Positions 34,547 through 63,137 of a DNA stretch of 64,000 bases are shown here, piece by piece. Source of the DNA: a virus. Numbering within the stretch: position 1 is the first letter of the stretch; every line of letters begins with the position of its first letter. The translations under genes were made by a program, and so were the position numbers. The notes under the pieces were generated by a model, which ran no database searches, had not been told where the DNA came from, and worked only from the letters and a program-made list of their open reading frames with translations. The stretch spans positions 38,648 to 102,647 of IMG/VR virus record IMGVR_UViG_3300025108_000022; one strand, given 5' to 3'.

Positions 34547-34704
34547 TGATTTGGAGTTTGACATTTGCGATAATAACAGTGGTGTGTATTTTTTTGATTT
34601 ATGAGGTATTCAACCTTGTCCAAATACCACCCGAAAACGACGGTGACGAAGAGGCTGAACGCCAAGCAATTATCGCTTCAATGTCCCGTCAGCATTTGAG
34701 GTGA
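34543..34704 (+). CDS. 53-aa single-pass membrane protein (not in ORF track)
   Basis: MMIWSLTFAIITVVCIFLIYEVFNLVQIPPENDGDEEAERQAIIASMSRQHLR; overlaps both neighbours (ATGA, GTGA). Confidence 0.6.
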   Translation: MMIWSLTFAIITVVCIFLIYEVFNLVQIPPENDGDEEAERQAIIASMSRQHLR

Positions 34705-36089
34705 AGCGTTTGTTAAATAGCCCCGAAGCATTCGATCAAGCGTGGTCGATCATGAAGGGCATTGTTTTCAACGGTCAGTATTTTGAGGATATTGACGAAA
34801 TGGATCCTATGGTGGTTGAAGCCCTTCGCATGTTTAACCAAGACAAAGAAGCCAACCCTTTGCCCGAACCACCGTTTCAAGCAAAGGGGCGCATAGGGAA
34901 ACCGTTCAAGGCCATGAGGGATGCTCGTTTGGCGGGCATAGACCATCAACCTATTTTTGACGCTATGCCGGGATTCACCGATTCCGAGAACAACATGCTC
35001 TCAACCTTCATCAATTGGGAGGGCGGAAAAACGAGCGAAATGCCAAAGTTCCGTGCGATGGCTCGGCATTTGGGCGATTGGGAACGACCAGTGGAGCCAA
35101 TGACGGGAAGTGGGTCTTTCGTGTTGGGTATGAATCGGGGAACGGGGTTGATGAATGACATGAACCCCGACATCGTGAATGTTCACCAACAGGCAAAGAG
35201 AGGTTTGGGTGATGTAGCAATTCCTCAATCCCAAGAGGCTCATAACACAGCCATTGACGCTATGAACGCTATTCGTGAAAGAAGGGATGTTGACGGCGAA
35301 GAACTTTCGCAACAAGAACTCACTGACCTTGCTCGGCTGTTTGTGGGCAACAACCTGTCTTCTTACCGAACTGATTGGCGAGGGGTGGACTGGGCTGGGC
35401 GCACAGAAGTCAACGAGAAGGGCAAAACGGTGCCGATGGGAGGGTTTGATGGGGACTACGCTGTCCCTTATACAGAAGGCCGTGTTCCCTATCAGTCTTG
35501 GCGTGATAACAACGAAGAGGTTGAGCGTCTATTCCAATTGACAGAACAACAACAAGGCAAGACTCTCAAAGACAGGGCGAATGCGGCTGGACTGACTGAC
35601 GCTGAACGCAAAAAGGTTGGCAATTGGCGGGCTTTCCCTCACCATGCTGGTTCAATCAACCTTAACTCCTATGCTCCACGCTACAAAGGGGTGGACATCC
35701 GACACGGCGACGCTTTTGACCTCCACGAATTGTTGCGACCGACTGATTTGTTGTATCTAGATCCGCCGTATATTGGCCGTGATATGGATTATGGGGCGAC
35801 CTCATTACAGCGTCAAGGAAGAACATACGACGATTTCCAAAGAAAAATCCTGCAAATGGGTCGTGAACACGAAGGCCCATCCATCCTATCCAATTACATG
35901 TATGCGAAGGATCAACATCAGCCCCTTGAACAATACATCAAGGATGTCATAGATTCCGGCTACACTATTTTCCCGTGGCTACGCTCACCGAAAGCAAACA
36001 ATTTCCCACAGGTGGAGATGTTCGGATTGAAAGGGATTGAAGGGCCGATACCCGGTTTAGCACGAAGCACCCAAACCAAATTGTATTGA
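34701..36089 (+). CDS. Dam-family (alpha-class) DNA adenine methyltransferase
   Basis: FINWEGGK, VEPMTGSGS (motif I), MNDMNPDIVN, LLYLDPPY (motif IV), ILSN; start may be TTG 34710 after GAGGTGA. Confidence 0.85.
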   Translation: MKRLLNSPEAFDQAWSIMKGIVFNGQYFEDIDEMDPMVVEALRMFNQDKEANPLPEPPFQAKGRIGKPFKAMRDARLAGIDHQPIFDAMPGFTDSENNMLSTFINWEGGKTSEMPKFRAMARHLGDWERPVEPMTGSGSFVLGMNRGTGLMNDMNPDIVNVHQQAKRGLGDVAIPQSQEAHNTAIDAMNAIRERRDVDGEELSQQELTDLARLFVGNNLSSYRTDWRGVDWAGRTEVNEKGKTVPMGGFDGDYAVPYTEGRVPYQSWRDNNEEVERLFQLTEQQQGKTLKDRANAAGLTDAERKKVGNWRAFPHHAGSINLNSYAPRYKGVDIRHGDAFDLHELLRPTDLLYLDPPYIGRDMDYGATSLQRQGRTYDDFQRKILQMGREHEGPSILSNYMYAKDQHQPLEQYIKDVIDSGYTIFPWLRSPKANNFPQVEMFGLKGIEGPIPGLARSTQTKLY

Positions 36090-38459: not shown

Positions 38460-39167
38460 TTAGGCATTGGTAATTTTGACTCTCTCTTTCACCACAGCCG
38501 ACTCGCTGTTTAGTGCCTCAACAATGGACTTAGCACGGACTTTGCCAATGCCTTCAAGTTTCATCAGTTCTTTCACAGAAGCCCCAGCAATTTCAGCGAT
38601 TGACCCGAAAGAAGACAGCAAACGCTTTGCGATAGCCTCACTACATCCGATACCACGGAGTCCGTCAATCCGTATATCCTCGCTTGAGGTGCGACGGAGT
38701 GTGCGGTATGTGCTAATGCTCCCAAGAGTGCCGTCCTTTTCACATCGTTTCACGATCCAGTAGGCGGCGGCGGAGGGAGTAGGGAATTGCATGATTGTTA
38801 AGTCAAAGTCAACATCAAGTCTTGACAATGAACCTAAGAACTGCGCTTGAATGCGGGCGTATGGTGTCCTGTTGCCTCTTCGCTTGAGGCTTGCCACATA
38901 GGCGTCCAGTTTGCCATGAATAACCAATATCATGCGGTTGTAGTTCTCATCCATGTTCTCCAATTGGTGAGCAAGGTGTCCACTTTGGAGGGATTGCATG
39001 TAGTCGGCAATACTCTTAGCCTCAATGCCGATTTGACCGTAGCAGTAGTCCGTGATCAAGTTTTGGTTAAGTTCCCACTTGATTTTTGCCTTGTCGGCTT
39101 GTTTTTTGACGGCTTCTTCAAGGCCAGATCGTTCACGATTGTCAATGTATAGGATTTTTTCAACCAT
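38460..39167 (-). CDS. ERCC4/XPF-family structure-specific nuclease with HhH motifs
   Basis: IDNRE, IGIEAKSIADY...SLQSGHL, C-terminal GIGCSEAIAKRLL and LEGIGKVRA. Confidence 0.85.
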   Translation of the reverse strand: MVEKILYIDNRERSGLEEAVKKQADKAKIKWELNQNLITDYCYGQIGIEAKSIADYMQSLQSGHLAHQLENMDENYNRMILVIHGKLDAYVASLKRRGNRTPYARIQAQFLGSLSRLDVDFDLTIMQFPTPSAAAYWIVKRCEKDGTLGSISTYRTLRRTSSEDIRIDGLRGIGCSEAIAKRLLSSFGSIAEIAGASVKELMKLEGIGKVRAKSIVEALNSESAVVKERVKITNA

Positions 39168-39816: not shown

Positions 39817-40890
39817 TCATACTCCGCCACTCCTGTCATAGAACGGGCAACGACCGATACAATACCCCTTTTGGTGAAGGGTTCGGCACGATGGTGATTT
39901 GTAGTAGCGATCCACATTATGGTTGATGTATGATACGGTGATGTCCTCTTTGTAGTCCGACCAATCCAAGTCCCGAATGAACGACACGATGGTGTCTTTG
40001 ATGCTACGGTTGGTGGTTGGCGATGAACGAGGGGGTCTTGCGAAGGAGCGTAGCCTGTCCTGCAAATACATGGCAAGATACACTCTCGCTTCGTGAGTAG
40101 GGTTGCTCCCCTTTTCACAGGCGGCTGACGCCAAGCAGGGGAGGATAGTGAGGTTGCCGACCTTCTTCATGTCCACATCCACAGGGTCAGCCTCAAATGG
40201 TGCATCGGGATCTCGCTTCTTGGTCTTGATAACCATACCTTTCGTGCCGTATGGCTTCATGCCCCCATGAGGCTCGTCGGCTTTGGCTATGACTGACGGC
40301 CAACCTGCTTCAAGGTCTTCGGTTGTCAGCGGCATACCCCATAGCCCCCGTTTGAAATTGTATGTGTTAGGAATGCGAATGTGCCTGTCGGGTCGGAATG
40401 AAACCACTGGATCGAGAGTGGACAAGTCCCACTTCTTAACCCAGCCGTCAATCATTTTACGACCAGTGAGCAAGAAGTCACCGAGTTCAATTGAAGTCGG
40501 TTCGTATGTTTTGTCAAGGCTGACCCAAATATGAACACCGCCTCCGGTGAACCACATAGCGTGCCGCCAGTCGTTTGACACAAGGTGCTGATGAAGCGCA
40601 TAGACTTCTTTGAAGCACCTGTCGCCCGCTTGGGCGGCTGATACACTCTCTTTCATGGCTCGTTCATAGTCCATGTCAATGACGAAGTGTGGGATCACAG
40701 CCGTGTTGTATTCACCACGGTTCCCTTTCGTCTTTAATTGACGGAAACCATAGACCGTAGTGGTGAGGTTGTCAGCACCGTTCGTGGCGGCGACATAGCG
40801 TTGCAGTTCGTCCATGTTATGCACCACTTTCCGCTTTCGCATATCCACCTCACGGGGAAAATGTCGGAACATGTGGGTGCTTCGTGTCAT
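39817..40890 (-). CDS. Archaeo-eukaryotic primase, PriS catalytic domain fused to PriL-like Fe-S domain
   Basis: FVIDMDY, FTGGGVHIW, RHIRIPNTYN; C-terminal LPCL...HEARVYL...SPSC...GYCIGRC. Confidence 0.85.
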   Translation of the reverse strand: MTRSTHMFRHFPREVDMRKRKVVHNMDELQRYVAATNGADNLTTTVYGFRQLKTKGNRGEYNTAVIPHFVIDMDYERAMKESVSAAQAGDRCFKEVYALHQHLVSNDWRHAMWFTGGGVHIWVSLDKTYEPTSIELGDFLLTGRKMIDGWVKKWDLSTLDPVVSFRPDRHIRIPNTYNFKRGLWGMPLTTEDLEAGWPSVIAKADEPHGGMKPYGTKGMVIKTKKRDPDAPFEADPVDVDMKKVGNLTILPCLASAACEKGSNPTHEARVYLAMYLQDRLRSFARPPRSSPTTNRSIKDTIVSFIRDLDWSDYKEDITVSYINHNVDRYYKSPSCRTLHQKGYCIGRCPFYDRSGGV

Positions 40891-40899
40891 AATACTCAC
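40877..40899. repeat. Direct repeat copy 1 flanking beta-MTase (21/23 identical to 42205-42227)
   Basis: GTGCTTCGTGTCATAATACTCAC vs GTGCTTCGTGTCATATTGCTCAC. Confidence 0.9.
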
Positions 40900-42218
40900 C
40901 ATTCAAAGAGCGACCTTTGCGCCCGAAGGACACGCACTTTTTGTTCCTCTATTTCAACCCAATGTGAAATCCGATGGCGAGCGATGCCGATGTATTCTTC
41001 TTCACGCTCAATGCCAATGAAATTGAAGCCCTCCACATTCGCCGCAATACCAGTAGTTCCACTCCCCATGAACGGATCTAAGACGACTCCGTTGGGAGGC
41101 GTGACGAGTCGGCATAGGTATTTCATCAAATTAACGGGCTTAACCGTTGGGTGTATGTTTTTTCGGTATTCAACTTTGTTGTGTAAAGACGAAGGCTTCG
41201 CTTCGTCGTTTTCGTGCTTGAAATCCTCACTCCCACGCTTCAATTCGGCTTTTGCTTGATTGCTCCACGCAACAAGTTGCGGTTCTTTGTCTTCCAAACC
41301 AAAGTCCTTTTCCGCTTTGCTCGCTTTAGCGCAGTAAAAGAATCGGGCGGCTGAACCATTTCCCATCTCGGTGCGAACCCCGTTGTCCACATTCCCCCAT
41401 CCCCCTTCGTAATGTTCACCCATAGCCACATTGGACTTCTTTGGGAACGCACCACCATTGGATTGAGGGAACAGGTTCACGACTTCATCCGAGCCATCGT
41501 GAATGAAATTGGCGGGGAATCTCCCTAAAGCGTGTTGATCCTGTGCTTCTTTGTTGTCTTTCATGCCAAAATTGACAACGGCATTCTCCCTGTTGTTGCT
41601 ACCAATGGATAATTTCTCGTTGGTGGCTATTCGGCAACCGTCAATGTTCAAACCGCCTGTGCCATGCTCAAGCACATTCTCAACGATAGTGCCGATAAGG
41701 GGCTTGCGGGCGACCACGATAGGCTCATGGGCAGGTTTGAGGGATGAACCCCACCCCTCCCATTTTTTCGCTTCGTCGGTTTGTGGGTTCTCCGCTGTTT
41801 TCTCTTTCATTTGAAATCCCAATGGCCCTTTCACTGTTCGTGATGAAGGGAGGACTTCTCCCTCAACATAGCGACCCGCTTTTTTGTCAATGTTCTTACT
41901 GACGGACTGACTTTTTGGGAAGCCCGACCCATAGACCCACATGATTTGATCACGGATTTCAAAGCCAGCGTCCTCTATGTTCACGGCCATGCGGTGATAT
42001 GTGCGAGAACCAGCAAATGATAGCAAATATCCTCCCGGTTTCAATACTCGGAAAGCCTCTTTCCACATCTCAACCGAAGGCACATCGTAGTCCCACTTCT
42101 TGCCCATGAAGGACAGTCCGTATGGTGGATCGGTGACGATTGAGTCAACGCTGTTATCCTCCATTTTCTCAAGTATAGCGATACAATCTCCGTGTATTAG
42201 TTCTGTGCTTCGTGTCAT
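40896..42218 (-). CDS. Beta-class N6-adenine/N4-cytosine DNA methyltransferase
   Basis: LIHGDC, DSIVTDPPY, HPTVKPV, VLDPFMGSGTTG, FIGIERE. Confidence 0.92.
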   Translation of the reverse strand: MTRSTELIHGDCIAILEKMEDNSVDSIVTDPPYGLSFMGKKWDYDVPSVEMWKEAFRVLKPGGYLLSFAGSRTYHRMAVNIEDAGFEIRDQIMWVYGSGFPKSQSVSKNIDKKAGRYVEGEVLPSSRTVKGPLGFQMKEKTAENPQTDEAKKWEGWGSSLKPAHEPIVVARKPLIGTIVENVLEHGTGGLNIDGCRIATNEKLSIGSNNRENAVVNFGMKDNKEAQDQHALGRFPANFIHDGSDEVVNLFPQSNGGAFPKKSNVAMGEHYEGGWGNVDNGVRTEMGNGSAARFFYCAKASKAEKDFGLEDKEPQLVAWSNQAKAELKRGSEDFKHENDEAKPSSLHNKVEYRKNIHPTVKPVNLMKYLCRLVTPPNGVVLDPFMGSGTTGIAANVEGFNFIGIEREEEYIGIARHRISHWVEIEEQKVRVLRAQRSLFEW

Positions 42219-42227
42219 ATTGCTCAC
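42205..42227. repeat. Direct repeat copy 2 flanking beta-MTase
   Basis: See 40877-40899. Confidence 0.9.
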
Positions 42228-43165
42228 TCCAAGTGTGTTTGATAACGAGGACAGAACTCTTTGAGAGCGCACCACGGGTCGCAAATTGAGTATTGGCGAC
42301 CGGGTGCAATAAGTGGGAACATGCTGATGTCGCCGTCGCCCTTGTAGCGTCGGTGCATACGGACGAGGTTTTGCATATCAGCCATCATCAAGCCCAGTTC
42401 TTTGACACGAACTGCCTCCACCAAGCGGAACATTTCAGCGTCTTCGGTATCGGTGCCCTTGACACCCTTAGTGTGATCCCACCCCCAGTGGGTGATTTGT
42501 GCCGAAGGGTCAGCCTTTCGCAACGCCCACACATAAAACGCCATTTCCTTTCTCATAGCCTCGTATTTGTATTTGGCTTCTTTCCAAGCACCTGTCTTGA
42601 GTTCGTGAATGTGTAGTGTCCCGTCGGGGTTAGTGTAAATGCGGTCAATAAAACCGTTGATATGTATGCGTTGGGGTTGTCCGTCAACCTTAATTTCAAC
42701 CACGCAATCAATCTCCATCTCGTTGCCAGTCGGCAGGAAGTGTTCGGGGTCGCTGTTGTTGAAGCGGTCAATCTCCTTCACACGGAAACGGTCAATGTGC
42801 AGATCTTCATCCAAAAAGAACGAATCCTGTGCCGAACGGATTTCCTTTGAAGTGGGGAAGCACTCACGGAAATAGCCATCAAGGTCAGTTTCGGCACTTG
42901 CCTTTTCAATATCCACCCTGTCATAGAATCCTTCAACAGCGTCGTGGACATTGGTGCCCCGTAGCATGTTGTCGTTCTGTGGTTCCTTCATACCAACGAT
43001 TCGTTTTAGGCCGTATTGTTGAGCGCAAAAGGTGGACTCGCCCAGCGAGGACTTGCTCATACGGAGAATGATGTTGTCGGGCATACCGGGGTGCCAATCA
43101 TAACATGAGAACAAGTCCTCATGGTTCGGCACAGGGTATGGGCGTGGTGGCTTATGGGTAATCAT
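42224..43165 (-). CDS. Cas4-like PD-(D/E)XK exonuclease (solo, replication-associated)
   Basis: N-terminal Cys (FCAQQY), RGTNVHD, GFIDRI, IHELKTG, EMAFY, C-terminal CDPWCALKEFCP. Confidence 0.8.
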   Translation of the reverse strand: MITHKPPRPYPVPNHEDLFSCYDWHPGMPDNIILRMSKSSLGESTFCAQQYGLKRIVGMKEPQNDNMLRGTNVHDAVEGFYDRVDIEKASAETDLDGYFRECFPTSKEIRSAQDSFFLDEDLHIDRFRVKEIDRFNNSDPEHFLPTGNEMEIDCVVEIKVDGQPQRIHINGFIDRIYTNPDGTLHIHELKTGAWKEAKYKYEAMRKEMAFYVWALRKADPSAQITHWGWDHTKGVKGTDTEDAEMFRLVEAVRVKELGLMMADMQNLVRMHRRYKGDGDISMFPLIAPGRQYSICDPWCALKEFCPRYQTHLE

Positions 43166-44122
43166 TCACCACCACTCCTTTGGTTCGGGCTGTTCGTCTT
43201 TCTTGACCCATTCAAATTGCTCAAGGACTGACTTGTTTCCGGGGTCATTGATTTCGCATGACATGGCATCGTCGCTGTGTAGTTCCTCTTCCCCTCCCCA
43301 CATTTCAACAATACCCTGTTGATCGTCGTGGTAAATGCTCACCGCATCACAGGAATTGCATTCAAATGGCCGTCGGCCTTCGGGCACGAATCCATCGGCG
43401 AACTTCTGTTCCATTTCAGCAAGGGTGTTGTATTGGTTCATCCCGTGCTTCATTGGGGAAACCTTTCGGCTTTCCTCGTCCCAGTGCTTGGCTTGCGCCC
43501 ATAGATCTGGATATTTTTTCCATAGAACATACCACGATGAAGTGGGTTGTTTGATGCAGTGAAAGCACCCCAAGCGTTGAAAATTGACATACAATGGGTT
43601 CACCATGTCAAGTTTGTCAAGGTATTTGAAAGCGTCTTCTTCTGTCCAGCCCCACTCAATGAGAGGATAACGAATGCCGTCCTCCTTTGCGGTCTTTGAC
43701 ACACGCCTCTTCTCGTCTATGGCGATACCGACATACTTGATCGTGCATTCCTTAGTCGCCCGTTGAAGAGGATAGAGTTTGGCTTCTCTCGCCCAGTAGC
43801 AAGGATAAACGATGAGGGGTGCCCCACGAACATTTCCTTCGTTTTTGCCCCTCGTCACCTTGCCATAGAACCACTCGTTCCATGACTTCTTTGAGAACAC
43901 ATGTTCAATGTGCAATCCTTTTTCGGGGTATTTTTCTTGAATGTATTTTTCAACATGCTTGATGTAGTCGTAAAGTTCGGGGAACTCAAAACCAGTGTCA
44001 GCGAATACAATGCGGTGAATCGGATAGTTTGGATCGTCCAGTTCAAGCATCCTCAATAACATAGCCGTTGAATCCTTTCCGCCGCTGAACGACACCATCG
44101 CAATATCCTGTTTCTCTTCCAT
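43166..44122 (-). CDS. PAPS reductase/DndC-like PP-loop protein
   Basis: VSFSGGKDSTAML, FADTGFEFPE, RYPLIEWGW, RLGCFHC. Confidence 0.85.
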   Translation of the reverse strand: MEEKQDIAMVSFSGGKDSTAMLLRMLELDDPNYPIHRIVFADTGFEFPELYDYIKHVEKYIQEKYPEKGLHIEHVFSKKSWNEWFYGKVTRGKNEGNVRGAPLIVYPCYWAREAKLYPLQRATKECTIKYVGIAIDEKRRVSKTAKEDGIRYPLIEWGWTEEDAFKYLDKLDMVNPLYVNFQRLGCFHCIKQPTSSWYVLWKKYPDLWAQAKHWDEESRKVSPMKHGMNQYNTLAEMEQKFADGFVPEGRRPFECNSCDAVSIYHDDQQGIVEMWGGEEELHSDDAMSCEINDPGNKSVLEQFEWVKKDEQPEPKEWW

Positions 44123-44125
44123 GTT

Positions 44126-46405
44126 TTACCACCACTCTTGAGGCTTTGAGCCATCTGCCGTCGGCTGTCGCCAACCCATCGCCTCAAAGATGAGGGAAAC
44201 GGGGGCTATAATTTGCTTTTCTATCACAGCCGTGAAATCTATGTCTAATTCTTCAAGTTCTTCGGGGGTTCGGTATGCTTCGATCCCCTTTGTAGTGTAT
44301 GTGTGGGGGACACCATCGCCCTTCTCAAATCGGTTGTCGGGGTTCAGTCGGTTGTATGCCTTAGCGGCTCCTTGAAACCCACCCTGCTGTCCGTATTTTT
44401 CCGGCTTCTTGCCTAAGCGAGAGCGCATAACAAGAGCCTCACGCTTCACCACAGTTCGCACGCCGGAAATCCATGTGTTCACCAAATCCCGAATGTCGTC
44501 TTCACTGGCGTCCTCACGGCAAACGGCCTCAAAGGCCACTTCTTGAATGCGTTTGGTGATCTGTGCGGCATTGGACTTCTTCATCTCAAAGCCAGTGCAG
44601 TGTAGTCCCTGCTTCGGCCATATCACCCAGCCGAAGTTCCTGTTCTTCTTGGCGGCAACCCATGACTTCATCAGTTTCTCATACTCCACCACGAATCGCT
44701 CGCTGTTGAACTCTTTCTGTATCGTTCGTGTTAAGGCATCGGCTATCTCATGGCCGTCGTTGTCGCCGATTCCGATGTATGCGCTGTCGGTGTGTCCGGC
44801 CAATGGCTCATAGCCCATCTCTTCGCACACATCCATGAGGCGTGAAACCAGTGATCGACCAACATAGGTGATAGTAGCGGCAACAGTTCTGTGTGCTTCA
44901 CCATGACCTGTGTGTCCCATGAGGCCATATACGCTGGCGGCGGCACGCTTGAAGGCTAATTGCAGTGTGTTGAAGCCAGCGTATTCCGATGAACCCGGTT
45001 CGTGCTTCTTCATCTCGGCCTTCGCTTCGTTGCGAGCATCGGCCAGATCCATTTGCAGTTGGGGCAATACCCCAACCCTCTCTTGACTCCAATGTGTGCC
45101 GTTGCCGACCGCACGGGTATTCTCCCCTGCTTCGTGCCGAAGCATTTCGGGACTGATGTTGTCAGCCCGCTGAATCTCGGCATACATGGCACGATAGTCA
45201 AAGACAGCGACATTGTTATGTCGGCCTGTTTTCGGCTCGGCTACAAAGCCACCGCCGTATGAATCGCCAGTTCCCTTCTTGTATGTCCCTGTGGGTGCCG
45301 CCCATGTCGCCCTTCGGCGTAGCAATCCTCTTGCGAAGCGGCTCACTGTAAATACAGAACCAAACGATACGCCACAGACTCGTTGTAAAGCCATGAAGAA
45401 TCGGGTGACATGATATTCCCTGTCAAGGCGATCTGTGAGTAAAACATCAGCACGGTGATAGTGCAGGAAATCCTCAAAATGGTTGAGCCAAAGGTCGTGA
45501 TGTGATATTCCTTTGGTGTCTATCTTCCATAATTCGGGGTTATCGGGGAACGCCACCTTGCCAACAGCACCCAGTCGTCGGTCGGACAATTGACCGTTTC
45601 CTGCGTCCCGCCACACACGCTCAAAGCCGTGGTTCCTGTCAGCGAGGTCAACGGTCATGCGACCGGGTATCACTTGAGTCCCGTCGTCATAGACTCCACT
45701 GCGTGGGAGGTGGATCATTGGTGGTGAAGTGCTGAACTCCGAGAGAGGCGACATCCAGTCAAAGCCAATGTCATGGTGTTTGTAGCGTTCATACATTTTA
45801 GGCCAGTCGGCACGGTTGCCCGACCATGTGGTGATAAGGTCGGGATCTAATTCCTCAAACGCCAATGCAAATGCTTCAAGCATTTCCTTCTCGGAACGGT
45901 ATGGGTTGAGGACACCCTCATAGGTTGGATGCCAAGACCACTGCTGGACAACCTCACCGTTCGTGGTGAAGCCCATAGCAGTGAGTTCTCCTTGCTCGTT
46001 CCATTCAAGGTCAAAGCCACCAGCCCGAACCATGTTCGGGAACCAGTCGGGAATATCCTGCGGATCAATGCTGTCAATAGCATACCTGTCGGGGAAGTGA
46101 ATGTCAGCCTCCCATGTTTCGTCGCAAAGTTCTCGCATAGGTTTGACATCTTTCGGACTCGGTGCGACAATTGAAATCAATTCCCTGCCGTCCAAAGACT
46201 TGGCCGTCCTTTCACCAGCATACCAGCCAACGAACCGTTCGTCAAATAACTCGGTGATTCGTGGTGTATCGCTGTCAGCGGCCACATAGAAGTATGGTCG
46301 GAATGTCCCATCGTGAGCCTCCATCACCACACCGTTTTCATCACGGTATCGCAAATAGATCGAAGGGCACTCCGAATCATCGGTTTCGTATGTTTGGATA
46401 ATCAC
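44126..46405 (-). CDS. polB: Family B DNA polymerase
   Basis: FRPYFY, ExoI FDLEW, ExoII WSGNRADW, ExoIII YHRAD; polymerase motifs VFDYRAMYAE, KRAAASVYG, AGHTDS, KKNRN, GFEMKKS. Confidence 0.92.
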   Translation of the reverse strand: MIIQTYETDDSECPSIYLRYRDENGVVMEAHDGTFRPYFYVAADSDTPRITELFDERFVGWYAGERTAKSLDGRELISIVAPSPKDVKPMRELCDETWEADIHFPDRYAIDSIDPQDIPDWFPNMVRAGGFDLEWNEQGELTAMGFTTNGEVVQQWSWHPTYEGVLNPYRSEKEMLEAFALAFEELDPDLITTWSGNRADWPKMYERYKHHDIGFDWMSPLSEFSTSPPMIHLPRSGVYDDGTQVIPGRMTVDLADRNHGFERVWRDAGNGQLSDRRLGAVGKVAFPDNPELWKIDTKGISHHDLWLNHFEDFLHYHRADVLLTDRLDREYHVTRFFMALQRVCGVSFGSVFTVSRFARGLLRRRATWAAPTGTYKKGTGDSYGGGFVAEPKTGRHNNVAVFDYRAMYAEIQRADNISPEMLRHEAGENTRAVGNGTHWSQERVGVLPQLQMDLADARNEAKAEMKKHEPGSSEYAGFNTLQLAFKRAAASVYGLMGHTGHGEAHRTVAATITYVGRSLVSRLMDVCEEMGYEPLAGHTDSAYIGIGDNDGHEIADALTRTIQKEFNSERFVVEYEKLMKSWVAAKKNRNFGWVIWPKQGLHCTGFEMKKSNAAQITKRIQEVAFEAVCREDASEDDIRDLVNTWISGVRTVVKREALVMRSRLGKKPEKYGQQGGFQGAAKAYNRLNPDNRFEKGDGVPHTYTTKGIEAYRTPEELEELDIDFTAVIEKQIIAPVSLIFEAMGWRQPTADGSKPQEWW

Positions 46406-47202
46406 GCCGATGCCCCGCCTTCTTCTTGGCGGGGAGCGATAACGGCTGTTGTTCCAAAATCACCGTCGGGTGATTCGTGGCGAATGAGCAAGGGGCTGTC
46501 GTTGCCTCCGTGCAAATAGACAGTCCCATTCCCCGGCATAGCCTTGAGAGCGTCCATTAGCCACTTTCCAAACCAATTGAGAACACCTTCGCTTTCATCA
46601 GCGAGGTTGTTTGTCAATGGTTCAAGTGTTGATTCCATGCGGATTGAATCACGCTTGACGCTAAGGGTCAGCCCAGCGACATTTGATTCAAGACAGAATA
46701 GCGCACCGTTCTGTATGGATTTCCCAGTGTTTCGCATTTGTTGAAAACGCTGTCCTTCAAACGATTGAGCGAAGGTCAGTTCACCCGAACCGAACTTGTT
46801 GAAGTCGTTGGCTCTTGAATCATCAATCAGTTTCACGACTTGTTCAACGCCAGCCTGTGAAGAGGCCGAATTGACCGACGGCATAGTGAAGGAAGTGCTT
46901 GAGCCAGCGACATGGATCTTGCCATCGTCGTGAAGAACAATTTTCACTTCTTCGTTTCCAATGCCACATTCCTTGATGAGTGAAGTGAAGGTGGATAATT
47001 GGCCGAGCGCAATTGACCCAGCGTCAACACATCCCTCTCCTTCACGGAAAGAAGTGTGCCGTTGAATGAAATACGCTTTGTCAAGAGTTCCTGCGGAACC
47101 CAAGCCTTCTTCACTGACATTGACGACCAAATCATCCATGCCCTCAAAGCCCTTGAGGAAACCCAGCAGGTTGTGTTGAAGCATACGGAAGCCGACCATC
47201 AA
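46402..47202 (-). CDS. PCNA-like sliding clamp
   Basis: About 266 aa adjacent to PolB; C-terminal DSPLLI...TAVIAPR typical of PCNA. Confidence 0.7.
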   Translation of the reverse strand: MMVGFRMLQHNLLGFLKGFEGMDDLVVNVSEEGLGSAGTLDKAYFIQRHTSFREGEGCVDAGSIALGQLSTFTSLIKECGIGNEEVKIVLHDDGKIHVAGSSTSFTMPSVNSASSQAGVEQVVKLIDDSRANDFNKFGSGELTFAQSFEGQRFQQMRNTGKSIQNGALFCLESNVAGLTLSVKRDSIRMESTLEPLTNNLADESEGVLNWFGKWLMDALKAMPGNGTVYLHGGNDSPLLIRHESPDGDFGTTAVIAPRQEEGGASA

Positions 47203-49745: not shown

Positions 49746-50708
49746 TCAACCTCTTTGTTTGTAATCCCCAGTCATAGCATGGAGGAATAGGAGATCACTG
49801 GCTGTCCAGTCGGGGCTTCTTGCCGCCCACTGTCCCAGTATCATAAGGTGCTTCATCGCCGTAGCGGTGTCCACCGTATCGTCTTTGTATGCCGAGAGGA
49901 TTGCTTGGTGCATACCCTCAATTATTTCATCACGGGACATACCGTGCGTGTTGACAAGCGATTCCGCACTGTCAATTAAGTCGGAGTGAGGGCCAGCGAG
50001 AATGCCCTTGTAATAGGACTGTGCTGGCTCAAAGTCAGTGAGTGTCAAATTGATGAGGGCGTCCTCATCGGTTGGATCGATGGTTTGCATGGCTTTCAAA
50101 CAAGCCCGCATATCGCCTTTGTATTTCGTGATAAGCGACGGGAGAGCCGCAACCCACGCATCGGGGAAGTTCTCTTCACCAATCACACGACCGAGGAAAC
50201 CTTCGGCATCGCCTATCTCCAACGGGTTGAAGGAATAGGCAGGGAGTCTTGAACGGAGAGCAGGGATAATACGACCAATACGGTTGCATGTGAGAATCCA
50301 AAGCACATGGGTGCCCGTTTCCTCAATCAATTGGCGCATAGCGTCCTGTGCGTCTTTGGTGAGTCCATCGGCCTCATCAAGAAGAATGACCTTGAAGTCG
50401 TGGCCGACAGCCTTCTGTTCAGCGAGGCTCTTGAGCCTATCACGAACAAACCCAATGCCTCTATCATCGGAGGCGTTGAACACATGAAAGTTATTGGCGA
50501 AGGCATCACCCAGCAGATCCTTAGCGATAGCACGGCCACCGCTGGTTTTACCAGTTCCCGGTTTGCCGAAGAATATGACTCCACCACAGCGTAGTGTGTA
50601 TTTATTTTGAGCGTGGACAACCCATGTCGGAACATCGGCCTTCAATTGCTCAAGGCCGACCATTCCTTGTAGTGTGTCGGGTCGGTGGGTTTTCCATAAC
50701 TGTGTCAT
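49746..50708 (-). CDS. rfcS: Replication factor C small subunit (clamp loader)
   Basis: WKTHRP, GKPGTGKT, FNASDDRGI, LLDEADGLTKDAQDAMR, ALRSR, GDMR. Confidence 0.92.
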   Translation of the reverse strand: MTQLWKTHRPDTLQGMVGLEQLKADVPTWVVHAQNKYTLRCGGVIFFGKPGTGKTSGGRAIAKDLLGDAFANNFHVFNASDDRGIGFVRDRLKSLAEQKAVGHDFKVILLDEADGLTKDAQDAMRQLIEETGTHVLWILTCNRIGRIIPALRSRLPAYSFNPLEIGDAEGFLGRVIGEENFPDAWVAALPSLITKYKGDMRACLKAMQTIDPTDEDALINLTLTDFEPAQSYYKGILAGPHSDLIDSAESLVNTHGMSRDEIIEGMHQAILSAYKDDTVDTATAMKHLMILGQWAARSPDWTASDLLFLHAMTGDYKQRG

Positions 50709-50749
50709 AATATCACGCTCGGTGGGTTTCAAGCCAACAGGGGCTTGGG

Positions 50750-61261: not shown

Positions 61262-61446
61262 TGAACTCCCTCCCCGTCCACATCGTCCATCGTGGCTGGT
61301 CGGATGTCAAGACCCCACGGGGACTCACAGCCCCCACAGAAGAGAACAGGCGTGTTGCCCGATGGTTGATAGATTTTCAGTCGTTCGCCACAGCCTTTAC
61401 AGCATGGGTATTCGTTGAATCCGTGAATCGTCCACTGTTTGCTCAT
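61258..61446 (-). CDS. Zn-finger micro-protein
   Basis: CCKGC...FCGGC. Confidence 0.5.
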   Translation of the reverse strand: MSKQWTIHGFNEYPCCKGCGERLKIYQPSGNTPVLFCGGCESPWGLDIRPATMDDVDGEGVQ

Positions 61447-61985
61447 GCGCTCACCTCGTTCGGTGTGCAACCGTAGCGGATCTGGTCAATCAATATGTCA
61501 ATGCGCTTGTCCTCGTCCTCTCGTTCGTGGTCGTAAATGCACCACACAGCATAGACTGTGCTTGAACCGAGGTCAGCGTCGTCTATGATGTATTGAGAGG
61601 GCTTCTCGTCATACTGGGAGAGTCCTGTCATGTATGCGAATCGGTCAGCACTGTCAAGTGGGACAACAATGCGTGATGAACCCACAGCGAATGGTGGAGA
61701 GGCATTCGTGTATTCCTCTCTCCAATTTTTCCTTTCCTGTTCAGTCAGTCGTTCAACGCAAATCGTGGAGCCATGAATGTCCTTCATCATCACTTCACGA
61801 TTGTTGGCCTTTTGGTGCATGTCCTTGAGCATGTTTTCCCAGCCAGCAATCGTGTTGTTGATCTGCTGGTATTGGTCTTCGGTCAGTTCTCCTGTCGCCT
61901 TCATGGCGTGTGCTGAACAGCACGCCGCCTCAAGGTCGGATAGCGTTTGACTCATCTCGTCAGTCATTCGTGTTGAATCGCTCAT
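61443..61985 (-). CDS. Hypothetical protein
   Basis: 180 aa bounded by the 17-nt repeats. Confidence 0.55.
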   Translation of the reverse strand: MSDSTRMTDEMSQTLSDLEAACCSAHAMKATGELTEDQYQQINNTIAGWENMLKDMHQKANNREVMMKDIHGSTICVERLTEQERKNWREEYTNASPPFAVGSSRIVVPLDSADRFAYMTGLSQYDEKPSQYIIDDADLGSSTVYAVWCIYDHEREDEDKRIDILIDQIRYGCTPNEVSA

Positions 61986-62089
61986 GCGCTCACCTCCACC
62001 ACTTCAAAGAATCCTTTCCATTCCTCAAGCAAGATCTTGAGTTCTGTTTCGTTTAGGTTTTCATGCCAATTGATTTCGTATTTTTTCAT
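61982..62089 (-). CDS. 35-aa hypothetical micro-protein
   Basis: MKKYEINW...EVSA; GGAGG SD; ATGA overlaps. Confidence 0.45.
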   Translation of the reverse strand: MKKYEINWHENLNETELKILLEEWKGFFEVVEVSA

Positions 62090-62199
62090 GCTGATTCCTC
62101 CTTGTTGTAGCAATCCGATGAACAGTATGTTGCACCAGTATGCGGAGTCAGTGGTTTGTAGCAAACAACACAGTTCCCAAGTTCGGGTTTGAATGTCAT
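62086..62199 (-). CDS. 37-aa Zn-finger micro-protein (not in ORF track)
   Basis: MTFKPELGNCVVCYKPLTPHTGATYCSSDCYNKEESA. Confidence 0.55.
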   Translation of the reverse strand: MTFKPELGNCVVCYKPLTPHTGATYCSSDCYNKEESA

Positions 62200-62411
62200 G
62201 CTGATTCCTCCAAGCGGTTTTGCCAGTGCTTGACACCAGCGTCGTCCACATTGTATGAACTCATTCCTGCAAGGCAGATCGTGAGTTCATTCTTTGTATG
62301 CTGGGCGATACCACAGCCACAGAAGCGGCAAATGTCGCCTTCGGTCGGTTCCTTGAACTTCACCACATCAAGTGGGAGCAGTGCGTATTTTTTTCTATAA
62401 GAGTCGGTCAT
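62196..62411 (-). CDS. Small Cys/His protein
   Basis: 71 aa; CRFCGC...H...C; ends EESA. Confidence 0.45.
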   Translation of the reverse strand: MTDSYRKKYALLPLDVVKFKEPTEGDICRFCGCGIAQHTKNELTICLAGMSSYNVDDAGVKHWQNRLEESA

Positions 62412-62451: not shown

Positions 62452-62832
62452 TCAAGCCTCGCAATACCCATGCTTGAGCAATTTGGCGTGCCGATAATGG
62501 TTGTCCATGTCCTTTGCTGTCCACATTTGACACGGTGTAATGACGACCTCTTGTGGGTGTGGATCGTTGGAGTCCTTGAGCGTGCATTGATAGCCAGCCA
62601 TGACAACCTTCTTGACTCGTTGTGCCGTCGCTGGCGAGTCTGCTGGGAACTCCCAACCATTGTGGTTAAAGTCCCCATTGTCTGTGTCAAAGCGCAGGGC
62701 ACCATGATAGCCCAAGTCCTCGTCGTCGCCAGCAAAGCGTCCACGGAGGACGAACAAATACTTGCGTGCCGCATCCCATGTGCTGAAACACTGGATGCCG
62801 TAGCCGTCGCTGATGGTGAAGATCTGCCTCAT
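62452..62832 (-). CDS. Hypothetical protein
   Basis: 126 aa from ATG 62832. Confidence 0.45.
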   Translation of the reverse strand: MRQIFTISDGYGIQCFSTWDAARKYLFVLRGRFAGDDEDLGYHGALRFDTDNGDFNHNGWEFPADSPATAQRVKKVVMAGYQCTLKDSNDPHPQEVVITPCQMWTAKDMDNHYRHAKLLKHGYCEA

Positions 62833-63137
62833 GCTGATTCCTCCATTTGGCGTTCCTCTTCGGCAATCCATTCATCAGCAACCTCTCGGTGCTTTGCGGT
62901 CAATTGCCAAGCACCACCGGGCATAGTGATTGTTTCACCGGGGAGTTCAATGACATGATCGACCCTCTCCAAGTAGCCAGCATGACCCAGCCACCAGTTC
63001 AAATCCTTCATGGTTGAGCCGTGATTGACGCACTGTTGCCAGTGCCCCAGCACAGCGGCCTCAAAGGCACGCAAGCGTGCGACTTCGTTGATTGAAGGCA
63101 CATCACCAGTGTTCAGATCTGCGTTGTCGCTCATCAA
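62829..63137 (-). CDS. Hypothetical protein
   Basis: 102 aa; ends EESA. Confidence 0.45.
   Translation of the reverse strand: MMSDNADLNTGDVPSINEVARLRAFEAAVLGHWQQCVNHGSTMKDLNWWLGHAGYLERVDHVIELPGETITMPGGAWQLTAKHREVADEWIAEEERQMEESA

Follow-up and report, generated by a model that had tools for sequence, protein, structure and literature searches.

Restriction-modification and DNA methyltransferase (MTase) loci of bacteria are known to change by insertion with long target duplication, by allelic substitution and through diversity of their target-recognition domains (Nobusato 2000; Furuta et al. 2010, PMC2853133), and the 2010 survey counted cases in which the duplication exceeded 30 bp and the cargo held both the restriction and the modification gene (PMC2853133). 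In T4-type phages, modular shuffling takes place at promoter-early stem-loops (PeSLs) (Arbiol et al. 2010, PMC2839356; Comeau et al. 2014, PMC4122927). Here we describe an MTase gene lodged between a cas4-like gene and a primase gene on the minus strand of a 64,000-nt stretch of virus DNA, called the window below (IMG/VR record IMGVR_UViG_3300025108_000022, positions 38,648 to 102,647 of that record). The position of this gene, the slot, is bracketed by two copies of a short module, R. Our analysis makes it probable that R-by-R recombination is the route by which the MTase is precisely lost, and that joints falling in R created the start that the MTase shares with the primase. The features on which the argument turns are the following.

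42224-43165, minus strand: Cas4-like PD-(D/E)XK nuclease, flanking the slot on the left (Pfam PF12705, E 1.2e-17)
42205-42227, minus strand: left copy of R, overlapping the cas4-like stop and containing the 5-nt spacer, the ATG and the first four MTase codons
40896-42218, minus strand: beta-class N6/N4 DNA methyltransferase of 440 aa, family A variant A1, the cassette cargo (PF01555, PHROG 67)
40877-40899, minus strand: right copy of R, overlapping the MTase stop and the GGTGA Shine-Dalgarno (SD) sequence and containing the spacer, the ATG and the first four primase codons
39817-40890, minus strand: archaeo-eukaryotic primase (AEP) with a Cys-rich C-terminal domain, flanking the slot on the right (AEP motifs, weak PDB match)

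The module comprises the remainder of a stop codon and SD sequence, a 5-nt spacer, an ATG and four codons, 23-24 nt altogether. Its two copies in the window lie 1328 nt apart and are identical at 21 of 23 positions, with a perfect core of 15 nt. The cas4-like gene ends in GGAG-TGA (stop at 42226-42224) and the MTase ATG at 42218 follows five bases on; likewise, the MTase stop (40898-40896) is followed after five bases by the primase ATG at 40890. The direct repeat of 23 bp described in a sequence-only reading of this DNA was thus reproduced at 42205-42227 and 40877-40899, as was the observation that two unrelated proteins, the MTase and the primase, begin with the same five residues, MTRST. 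Allowing two mismatches at most, shuffling of the window would yield the R 15-mer 0.14 times, against three actual occurrences; two of these are exact copies, at neighbouring gene starts and in the same register. The first nine bases of R resemble the SD-spacer consensus of most genes in the window, and its 14 coding bases recur at no other gene start of the window. We rejected R as a general start-region motif of the genome, given that the window holds only two exact copies and that in IMG/VR the module is confined to this slot. The terminal W-stop codons of the MTase also make up the GGTGA SD of the primase, so that two constraints overlap at the right-hand junction.

Relatives of the locus were collected by protein-guided scans of IMG/VR and of JGI/ENA metagenomes, and the slot was read by tblastn and from the junctions; all of these relatives are metagenomic contigs. 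Twelve distinct contigs, the window included, have primases at least 97% identical and are referred to as the window clade. The right copy of R is identical in all 12, save for one single-nucleotide polymorphism (SNP) in L051, and the primase of the window clade carries three N-terminal codons (TRS) that are missing from outgroups. The contents of the slot varied. Family A was present in 4 of the 12 contigs (A1 in the window, A2 in L004, A3 in L005 and L006), a second N6/N4 family, B, in two (L052 and L053, two variants), and a C5 cytosine MTase in three, as two diverged alleles (C5a in L002 and L003, C5b in L051). In the remaining three (L001, L041 and L042) the slot was empty, and the cas4 stop, a 5-nt spacer and the primase ATG followed one another with exactly one R. 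Pfam assigned all occupants examined, in the window clade as in the outgroups, to DNA MTases (PF01555 or PF00145), and in some outgroups the slot is filled by a tandem pair of MTases. The sequence-only reading had proposed that relatives with a single-copy empty site, or with a different gene in the slot, would support a cassette, and both were found; that all relatives might carry the MTase, which would have spoken against it, was not the case.

The filled loci of the window clade carry R at both ends without exception, with a longest exact match between the left and right junctions of 13-24 nt (L006 has a perfect 24-mer). As a null, the longest exact match between a 65-nt junction segment and random 65-nt segments of the same locus was taken, the 95th percentile of which is 8 nt. 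In 13 filled loci of more distant clades the left/right match was 5-7 nt, and none of these loci was empty: their slot was always occupied by an MTase, and their primases lack the three extra codons.

Three lines of evidence place the joints in or next to R. The first is the structure of the empty site. The sequence-only reading predicted that a crossover between the R copies would delete the MTase exactly and join the cas4 stop to the primase start, and in-silico removal of the cassette and one repeat from L052 yielded precisely the natural empty site of L041, with 0 mismatches over 222 comparable nt. Since the relatives are metagenomic, one could envisage that the repeat is a chance match, or that the empty sites are artefacts of assemblies collapsed at a 23-nt repeat. 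We consider this scarcely credible: against chance stand the 0.14 expected matches, and against an artefact stand the recovery of empty sites from separate samples, on three contigs that are 16-32 kb long and differ by SNPs, and the further cargo types showing the same boundaries. A 23-nt repeat is also too short for false joins in assemblies made with long k-mers.

The second line is the distribution of differences around the slot. L041 and L042 are near-twins with five differing sites, all in the last 33 nt before the junction, and four of the five are shared with the A2-bearing L004, indicating that break points cluster at the junction. The C5 alleles are ~96% identical up to the cas4 stop, ~73% identical from there on, and 100% identical again over the last ~70 nt ahead of the primase ATG. 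In a tree of the left flank (1.9 kb), family A, C5 and empty states are each polyphyletic, so that slot content does not follow flank phylogeny; the window (A1) is sister to L051 (C5b) with support of 100/99, and this pair is sister to the empty L041 and L042 (96/96), while the A2 and A3 contigs, the empty L001 and C5a branch elsewhere.

The third line is the shared start itself. Among 120 family A homologues only those of the window clade begin MTR(S/N)TELIHGDC; the nearest others begin MKYELVHGDC or similarly, and a common MTRST start of MTase homologues in other contexts, which had been named as a possible objection, was therefore not found. In the outgroups every primase opens with MAH(M/L/I)FRH and is three codons shorter at this end. 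At their 5' ends families A and B share 28 nt, and the C5 genes share 13 nt. That three unrelated genes have acquired the same in-frame start argues for joints inside R, since crossovers in the long flanks cannot produce it.

Based on these comparisons, loss of the MTase by repeat-to-repeat recombination is well supported by sequence. The sequence-only reading had short-homology recombination account for both exit and entry of the MTase; the exit is borne out by natural empty genomes that mirror the predicted excision, and entry at the repeat is plausible. The recombination mechanism itself, and its direction in each case, we infer. The junction between the cas4-like gene and the primase gene would be a dedicated slot with a fast turnover of orphan DNA MTase genes, in which the left R copy supplies the translation start of whichever MTase is present and the right copy that of the primase. 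Recombination between the copies, homologous or by slippage, would delete the MTase precisely, and the excision would leave the cas4-stop/SD/ATG-primase arrangement intact, so that the translationally coupled replication operon would keep working. Replacement of the MTase and refilling of empty sites would occur by recombination between co-infecting relatives, with left-hand end points inside or adjoining R and right-hand ones in a conserved tail, similar to a PCNA-interacting peptide (PIP) box, plus R. The pay-off of such turnover would be escape from host restriction.

Several observations weigh against this reading, and they lend themselves to another, in which R is a passive scar: genes would enter, leave and replace one another through ordinary homologous exchange between co-infecting relatives across the long flanks (cas4, PAPS-reductase, PolB, primase), and an illegitimate deletion, occurring once or twice, would have given rise to the empty allele that later spread. 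The evidence for recombination at R comes from assembled contigs, and a junction pattern expected of a tandem or circular cassette had no match in IMG/VR. The flanks are 91-99% identical over several kilobases and are a far better recombination substrate than 23 nt; swaps and spread of the empty allele, perhaps most of the swapping, may have gone through them without R. Slot content also varies among outgroup clades that have no flanking repeat, and the mosaics inside family A, described below, amount to plain homologous exchange within the gene. Finally, the empty sites of the 89% clade (L007, L008, L045 and L046; primase MTHMFRH) do not carry the three extra codons and so are not simple products of R-by-R recombination; they look, from their sequence, like a different deletion of the microhomology type. 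L047, a filled contig of the same clade, has a diverged version of the primase extension. A passive R is nevertheless hard to reconcile with the presence of the same start module on three unrelated MTase families and on the primase, which needs joints inside R. Moreover, the empty sites lie on at least two flank haplotypes, one of which perfectly matches a filled contig, the divergence of the C5 alleles begins at the cas4 stop, and the 13 filled outgroup loci without a repeat include no empty site. We regard the passive-scar explanation as doubtful.

The origin of R bears on how the primase came to carry it. From the alignments, neither family A nor the primase appears to have had the shared start originally. 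The family B MTases of the outgroup contigs L018 and L019 already begin with an R-like sequence, and the L018/L019 B cassette is 72.9% identical in nucleotides to the B cassette of the window clade, where the flanks are 68.5% and 73.1% identical. The B cassette being as diverged as its flanks, B is probably the ancestral occupant of the slot and the source of the coding part of R. The sequence-only reading had the repeat copying the SD and start of the primase; the duplication stands, and the direction does not, as the start codons most likely moved from the slot MTase (family B) onto the primase and not the reverse. The right R copy could be what is left of an earlier second cassette, now joined in frame to the primase, and slots with two MTases, bearing 14-19-nt tail/SD repeats, do occur in outgroups; alternatively, the target may have been duplicated at insertion.

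A further possibility raised by the same comparison is that R is a functional translation-initiation or operator element co-regulating the MTase and the primase, for example the site of a translational repressor, and that the deletions are a side effect. R spans exactly the region from the SD to +14 that controls initiation, and in the comparison of the window clade with L019 the R-like start matches at 20 of 21 positions, despite flanking genes with ~70% nucleotide identity. However, 21-mers conserved at 20 or more of 21 positions are not rare, being found in 14 of ~985 windows in the B cassette and in 56 of 1054 in the primase, so that the nucleotide conservation of R between clades, as judged from these alignments, is notable and not exceptional. 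In addition, the motif is absent elsewhere in the window and, in IMG/VR, outside the slot, and most relatives run the same operon without R on the primase. We consider a regulatory role of this kind highly unlikely as the explanation of R.

Recombination at R, as proposed above, would act on a particular kind of cargo. The window MTase matches Pfam PF01555 (N6_N4_Mtase) with E 7e-36 and 124.7 bits (cut-off 26.7) and PHROG 67 with E 1.9e-79, and its motifs are ordered with DPPY (IV) at residues ~30-33, then a variable region, then FMGSG (I, FxGxG) ~70 residues from the C-terminus. It is accordingly classified, with predicted activity, as a beta-class N6/N4 DNA methyltransferase. Family A occurs in the slot as length variants of 440 aa (window), 405 aa (L004) and 388 aa (L005 and L006), and protein clusters contain further variants of 403, 371 and 362 aa. 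Across this range (362-440 aa), ~105 N-terminal and ~85 C-terminal residues are nearly identical, and the middle region is a mosaic of alternative segments (41151-41903 on the minus strand of the window; L004, L006 and proteins P0003-P0005 and P0016). In beta-class MTases the target-recognition region lies in the middle region, and the mosaic looks like a swapping of that region. The MTase gene has no G+C anomaly, which makes its recent capture from a foreign genome unlikely and fits an exchange inside the viral gene pool. Family A homologues of other archaeal virus clades were seen at other junctions (PolB/MTase, primase/MTase/XPF, before PolB), always in the replication module (L056-L066, L058, L069, L089 and others). 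Around family A MTases at the PolB/MTase and primase/MTase/XPF positions there were no flanking repeats, apart from two-gene slots, which have 14-19-nt tail/SD repeats between their two MTases.

The C-terminus of the slot MTases is the second element of the right-hand junction.

40899-40919, minus strand: PIP-box-like C-terminal tail of the MTase, QRSLFEW, whose last codons and stop form the primase SD
46402-47202, minus strand: virus-encoded PCNA sliding clamp (AlphaFold2 model and Foldseek)

Slot MTases of three families nearly all end in a tail of the Qx(S/T)LF(D/E)W type (L002, L010, L019, L022, L029-L032 and L052-L054), the exceptions being some C5 enzymes with a shorter QxxLW tail. Owing to this conserved tail, the final 12-17 nt are common to cassettes that are unrelated, and these nucleotides, the SD and R jointly make up the right-hand homology. 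The strict seven-position motif is found in the last 14 residues of 27 of the 120 family A homologues, as against 0.35% of internal windows, a ~60-fold enrichment. QRSLFEW fits 7 of 8 positions of Qxx[LIM]xx[FYW][FYW] and is one aromatic short of the canonical PIP box, examples of which are found in eukaryotic Dnmt1 and in archaeal FEN-1 and RFC-L. Directly upstream of PolB, the 266-aa open reading frame (ORF) at 46402-47202 gave no sequence match in Pfam, PHROG or PDB, and was identified as PCNA by a fold search: its AlphaFold2 model (mean predicted local distance difference test score 90.6) has the PCNA fold, and the top Foldseek matches are archaeal and human PCNA (E 2.5e-15, template-modelling score 0.7-0.78). 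It is a reasonable inference from the tails and the model that the viral PCNA is the likely docking partner of the MTases, and the tails suggest a clamp-coupled methylation of nascent viral DNA.

Junctions resembling that of the slot are present elsewhere in the genome. PolB and the PAPS-reductase-like gene terminate alike, in an EWW-stop junction (junctions at ~43166 and ~44126), and in relatives that do not have the latter gene (L010, L018, L019, L022 and others) PolB-EWW-stop stands directly before cas4; the gene thus appears to be a second variable accessory gene, missing in more distant relatives. In the early region, a 17/17 repeat (61441-61457 and 61980-61996) brackets the gene at 61443-61985 with an SD/spacer/start junction, and three near-identical 17-mers lie at 62086-62102, 62196-62212 and 62829-62845. 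Together, the repeats at the PAPS-reductase-like gene and in the early region indicate that junction-module repeats around accessory genes recur in this genome, and the 17-nt repeats could mark the same cassette logic. As a separate observation, the PolB of L042 (L042:806-3087) is ~80% identical over most of its length and 100% identical over its C-terminal 46 residues, with neighbouring genes at 96-98%, a pattern that amounts to a sharp mosaic boundary inside PolB.

From the tails and these junctions one could envisage a more elaborate system, in which R and the conserved tail/SD junction form an active, selected exchange site, a recombinase-free 'MTase integron' or one assisted by the viral Cas4-like or XPF nucleases, for high-frequency swapping of clamp-tethered MTases in the replisome operon, possibly via circular one-gene intermediates and, in view of the similar junction repeats, as a genome-wide cassette system. 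We think it unlikely that the locus works in this way.

The remaining annotated features of the replication module are listed here.

49746-50732: RFC-like clamp loader, further upstream (Pfam/PHROGs)
44126-46405, minus strand: PolB (Pfam/PHROGs)
43166-44122, minus strand: PAPS-reductase-like gene (Pfam/PHROGs), an accessory gene bracketed by a junction repeat
38460-39167, minus strand: XPF/ERCC4-HhH nuclease (Pfam/PHROGs)

The gene order on the minus strand is PolB, PAPS-reductase-like, Cas4-like, MTase, primase, small ORFs and XPF/ERCC4-HhH, and the plus strand of the window carries a caudoviral morphogenesis module (Pfam/PHROGs). In agreement with the sequence-only reading, which saw no integrase or transposase in the window, none was detected among ~50 window ORFs scanned against Pfam. 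Magroviruses (order Magrovirales) are likewise described as without integrase and transposase (ICTV profile). The gene content and the two opposed modules of the window fit the published description of magroviruses, suggesting a magrovirus-like archaeal tailed virus. The assignment was made by comparing gene content with the ICTV profile, as the phage collection gave one primase match only, to the distant Methanobacterium virus PhiF1 (26.6%); the G+C content of the window is 50%, compared with 31.5% in the magrovirus type species. The label 'primase' is based on the AEP catalytic motifs and on a weak PDB match (chains of 7nqf, E 0.014), the Pfam match being below threshold. Across 12 homologues, with identities as low as 28%, the motif residues D72, D74, T115-G116-G118-H120 and D160 do not vary, and in the alignment of these 12 sequences DxD, TGGGxH, the third Asp and four C-terminal Cys are all invariant, in keeping with a predicted AEP. 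A second MTase of the window, a D12-class (Dam-like) N6-adenine enzyme (PF02086, E 2e-10), is encoded at 34701-36089 on the plus strand, where the late operon ends, so that the virus encodes at least two DNA MTases.

In nature the locus exists as filled, refilled and empty alleles whose backbones hardly differ. Such a series appears to show viruses of uncultured marine archaea turning over anti-restriction (DNA-modification) genes with no mobile-element enzyme and with the coupled core operon undisturbed, a subject on which the magrovirus papers that we searched are silent, their main text making no mention of methyltransferases or recombination. In ocean viromes, arms races between virus and host could be traced by such a fixed MTase slot. 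Two ideas follow that may be of wider use: that an expression module of 23 nt may be enough to make a gene easily lost, and that MTases may ride the viral PCNA clamp and methylate nascent DNA.

When compared with known systems, the slot resembles integrons in that promoterless single-gene cassettes occupy one fixed place and depend on upstream expression signals. It differs in holding only MTases, and no integrase was found in the Pfam scans (attC-type structures were not looked for); with no integrase found, the slot is not an integron. The parallel with PCNA-tethered methylation lies in the Qxx(L)xx(W/F) tail of the slot MTases and in the virus having its own PCNA, RFC and PolB; here, however, the tail lacks one aromatic residue of the canonical box, it shares sequence with the SD of the following gene, and docking is predicted. 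Like PeSLs, R is a short expression signal that brackets non-essential genes, with deletion, insertion and replacement between near-identical viruses and no dedicated recombinase. PeSLs, in contrast, are intergenic units of promoter and terminator in hyperplastic regions, and mini-circles have been demonstrated for them; the slot is known from contigs, and R lies inside a tightly coupled core replication operon and consists of SD, spacer, ATG and four codons, with 5 nt from stop to start.

The closest likeness is with the insertion of bacterial restriction-modification genes. In both cases a modification gene lies between direct repeats that align once with the empty site of a relative, no transposase or integrase is present at the site (the slot holds MTase genes only), and the same locus also shows substitution by unrelated MTases and reshuffled recognition regions. 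The repeat of 23-24 nt found here is, however, below the >30 bp criterion of the bacterial survey, the cargo is an orphan MTase with no restriction gene, and the host of the insertion is the replication operon of an archaeal virus. Moreover, R was probably not born as a target duplication, considering that outgroup primases do not have its codons and that an R-like start is native to family B. Unlike the bacterial repeats, R is itself a translational-coupling junction together with start codons, with the result that the cargo and the downstream gene share their N-terminus.

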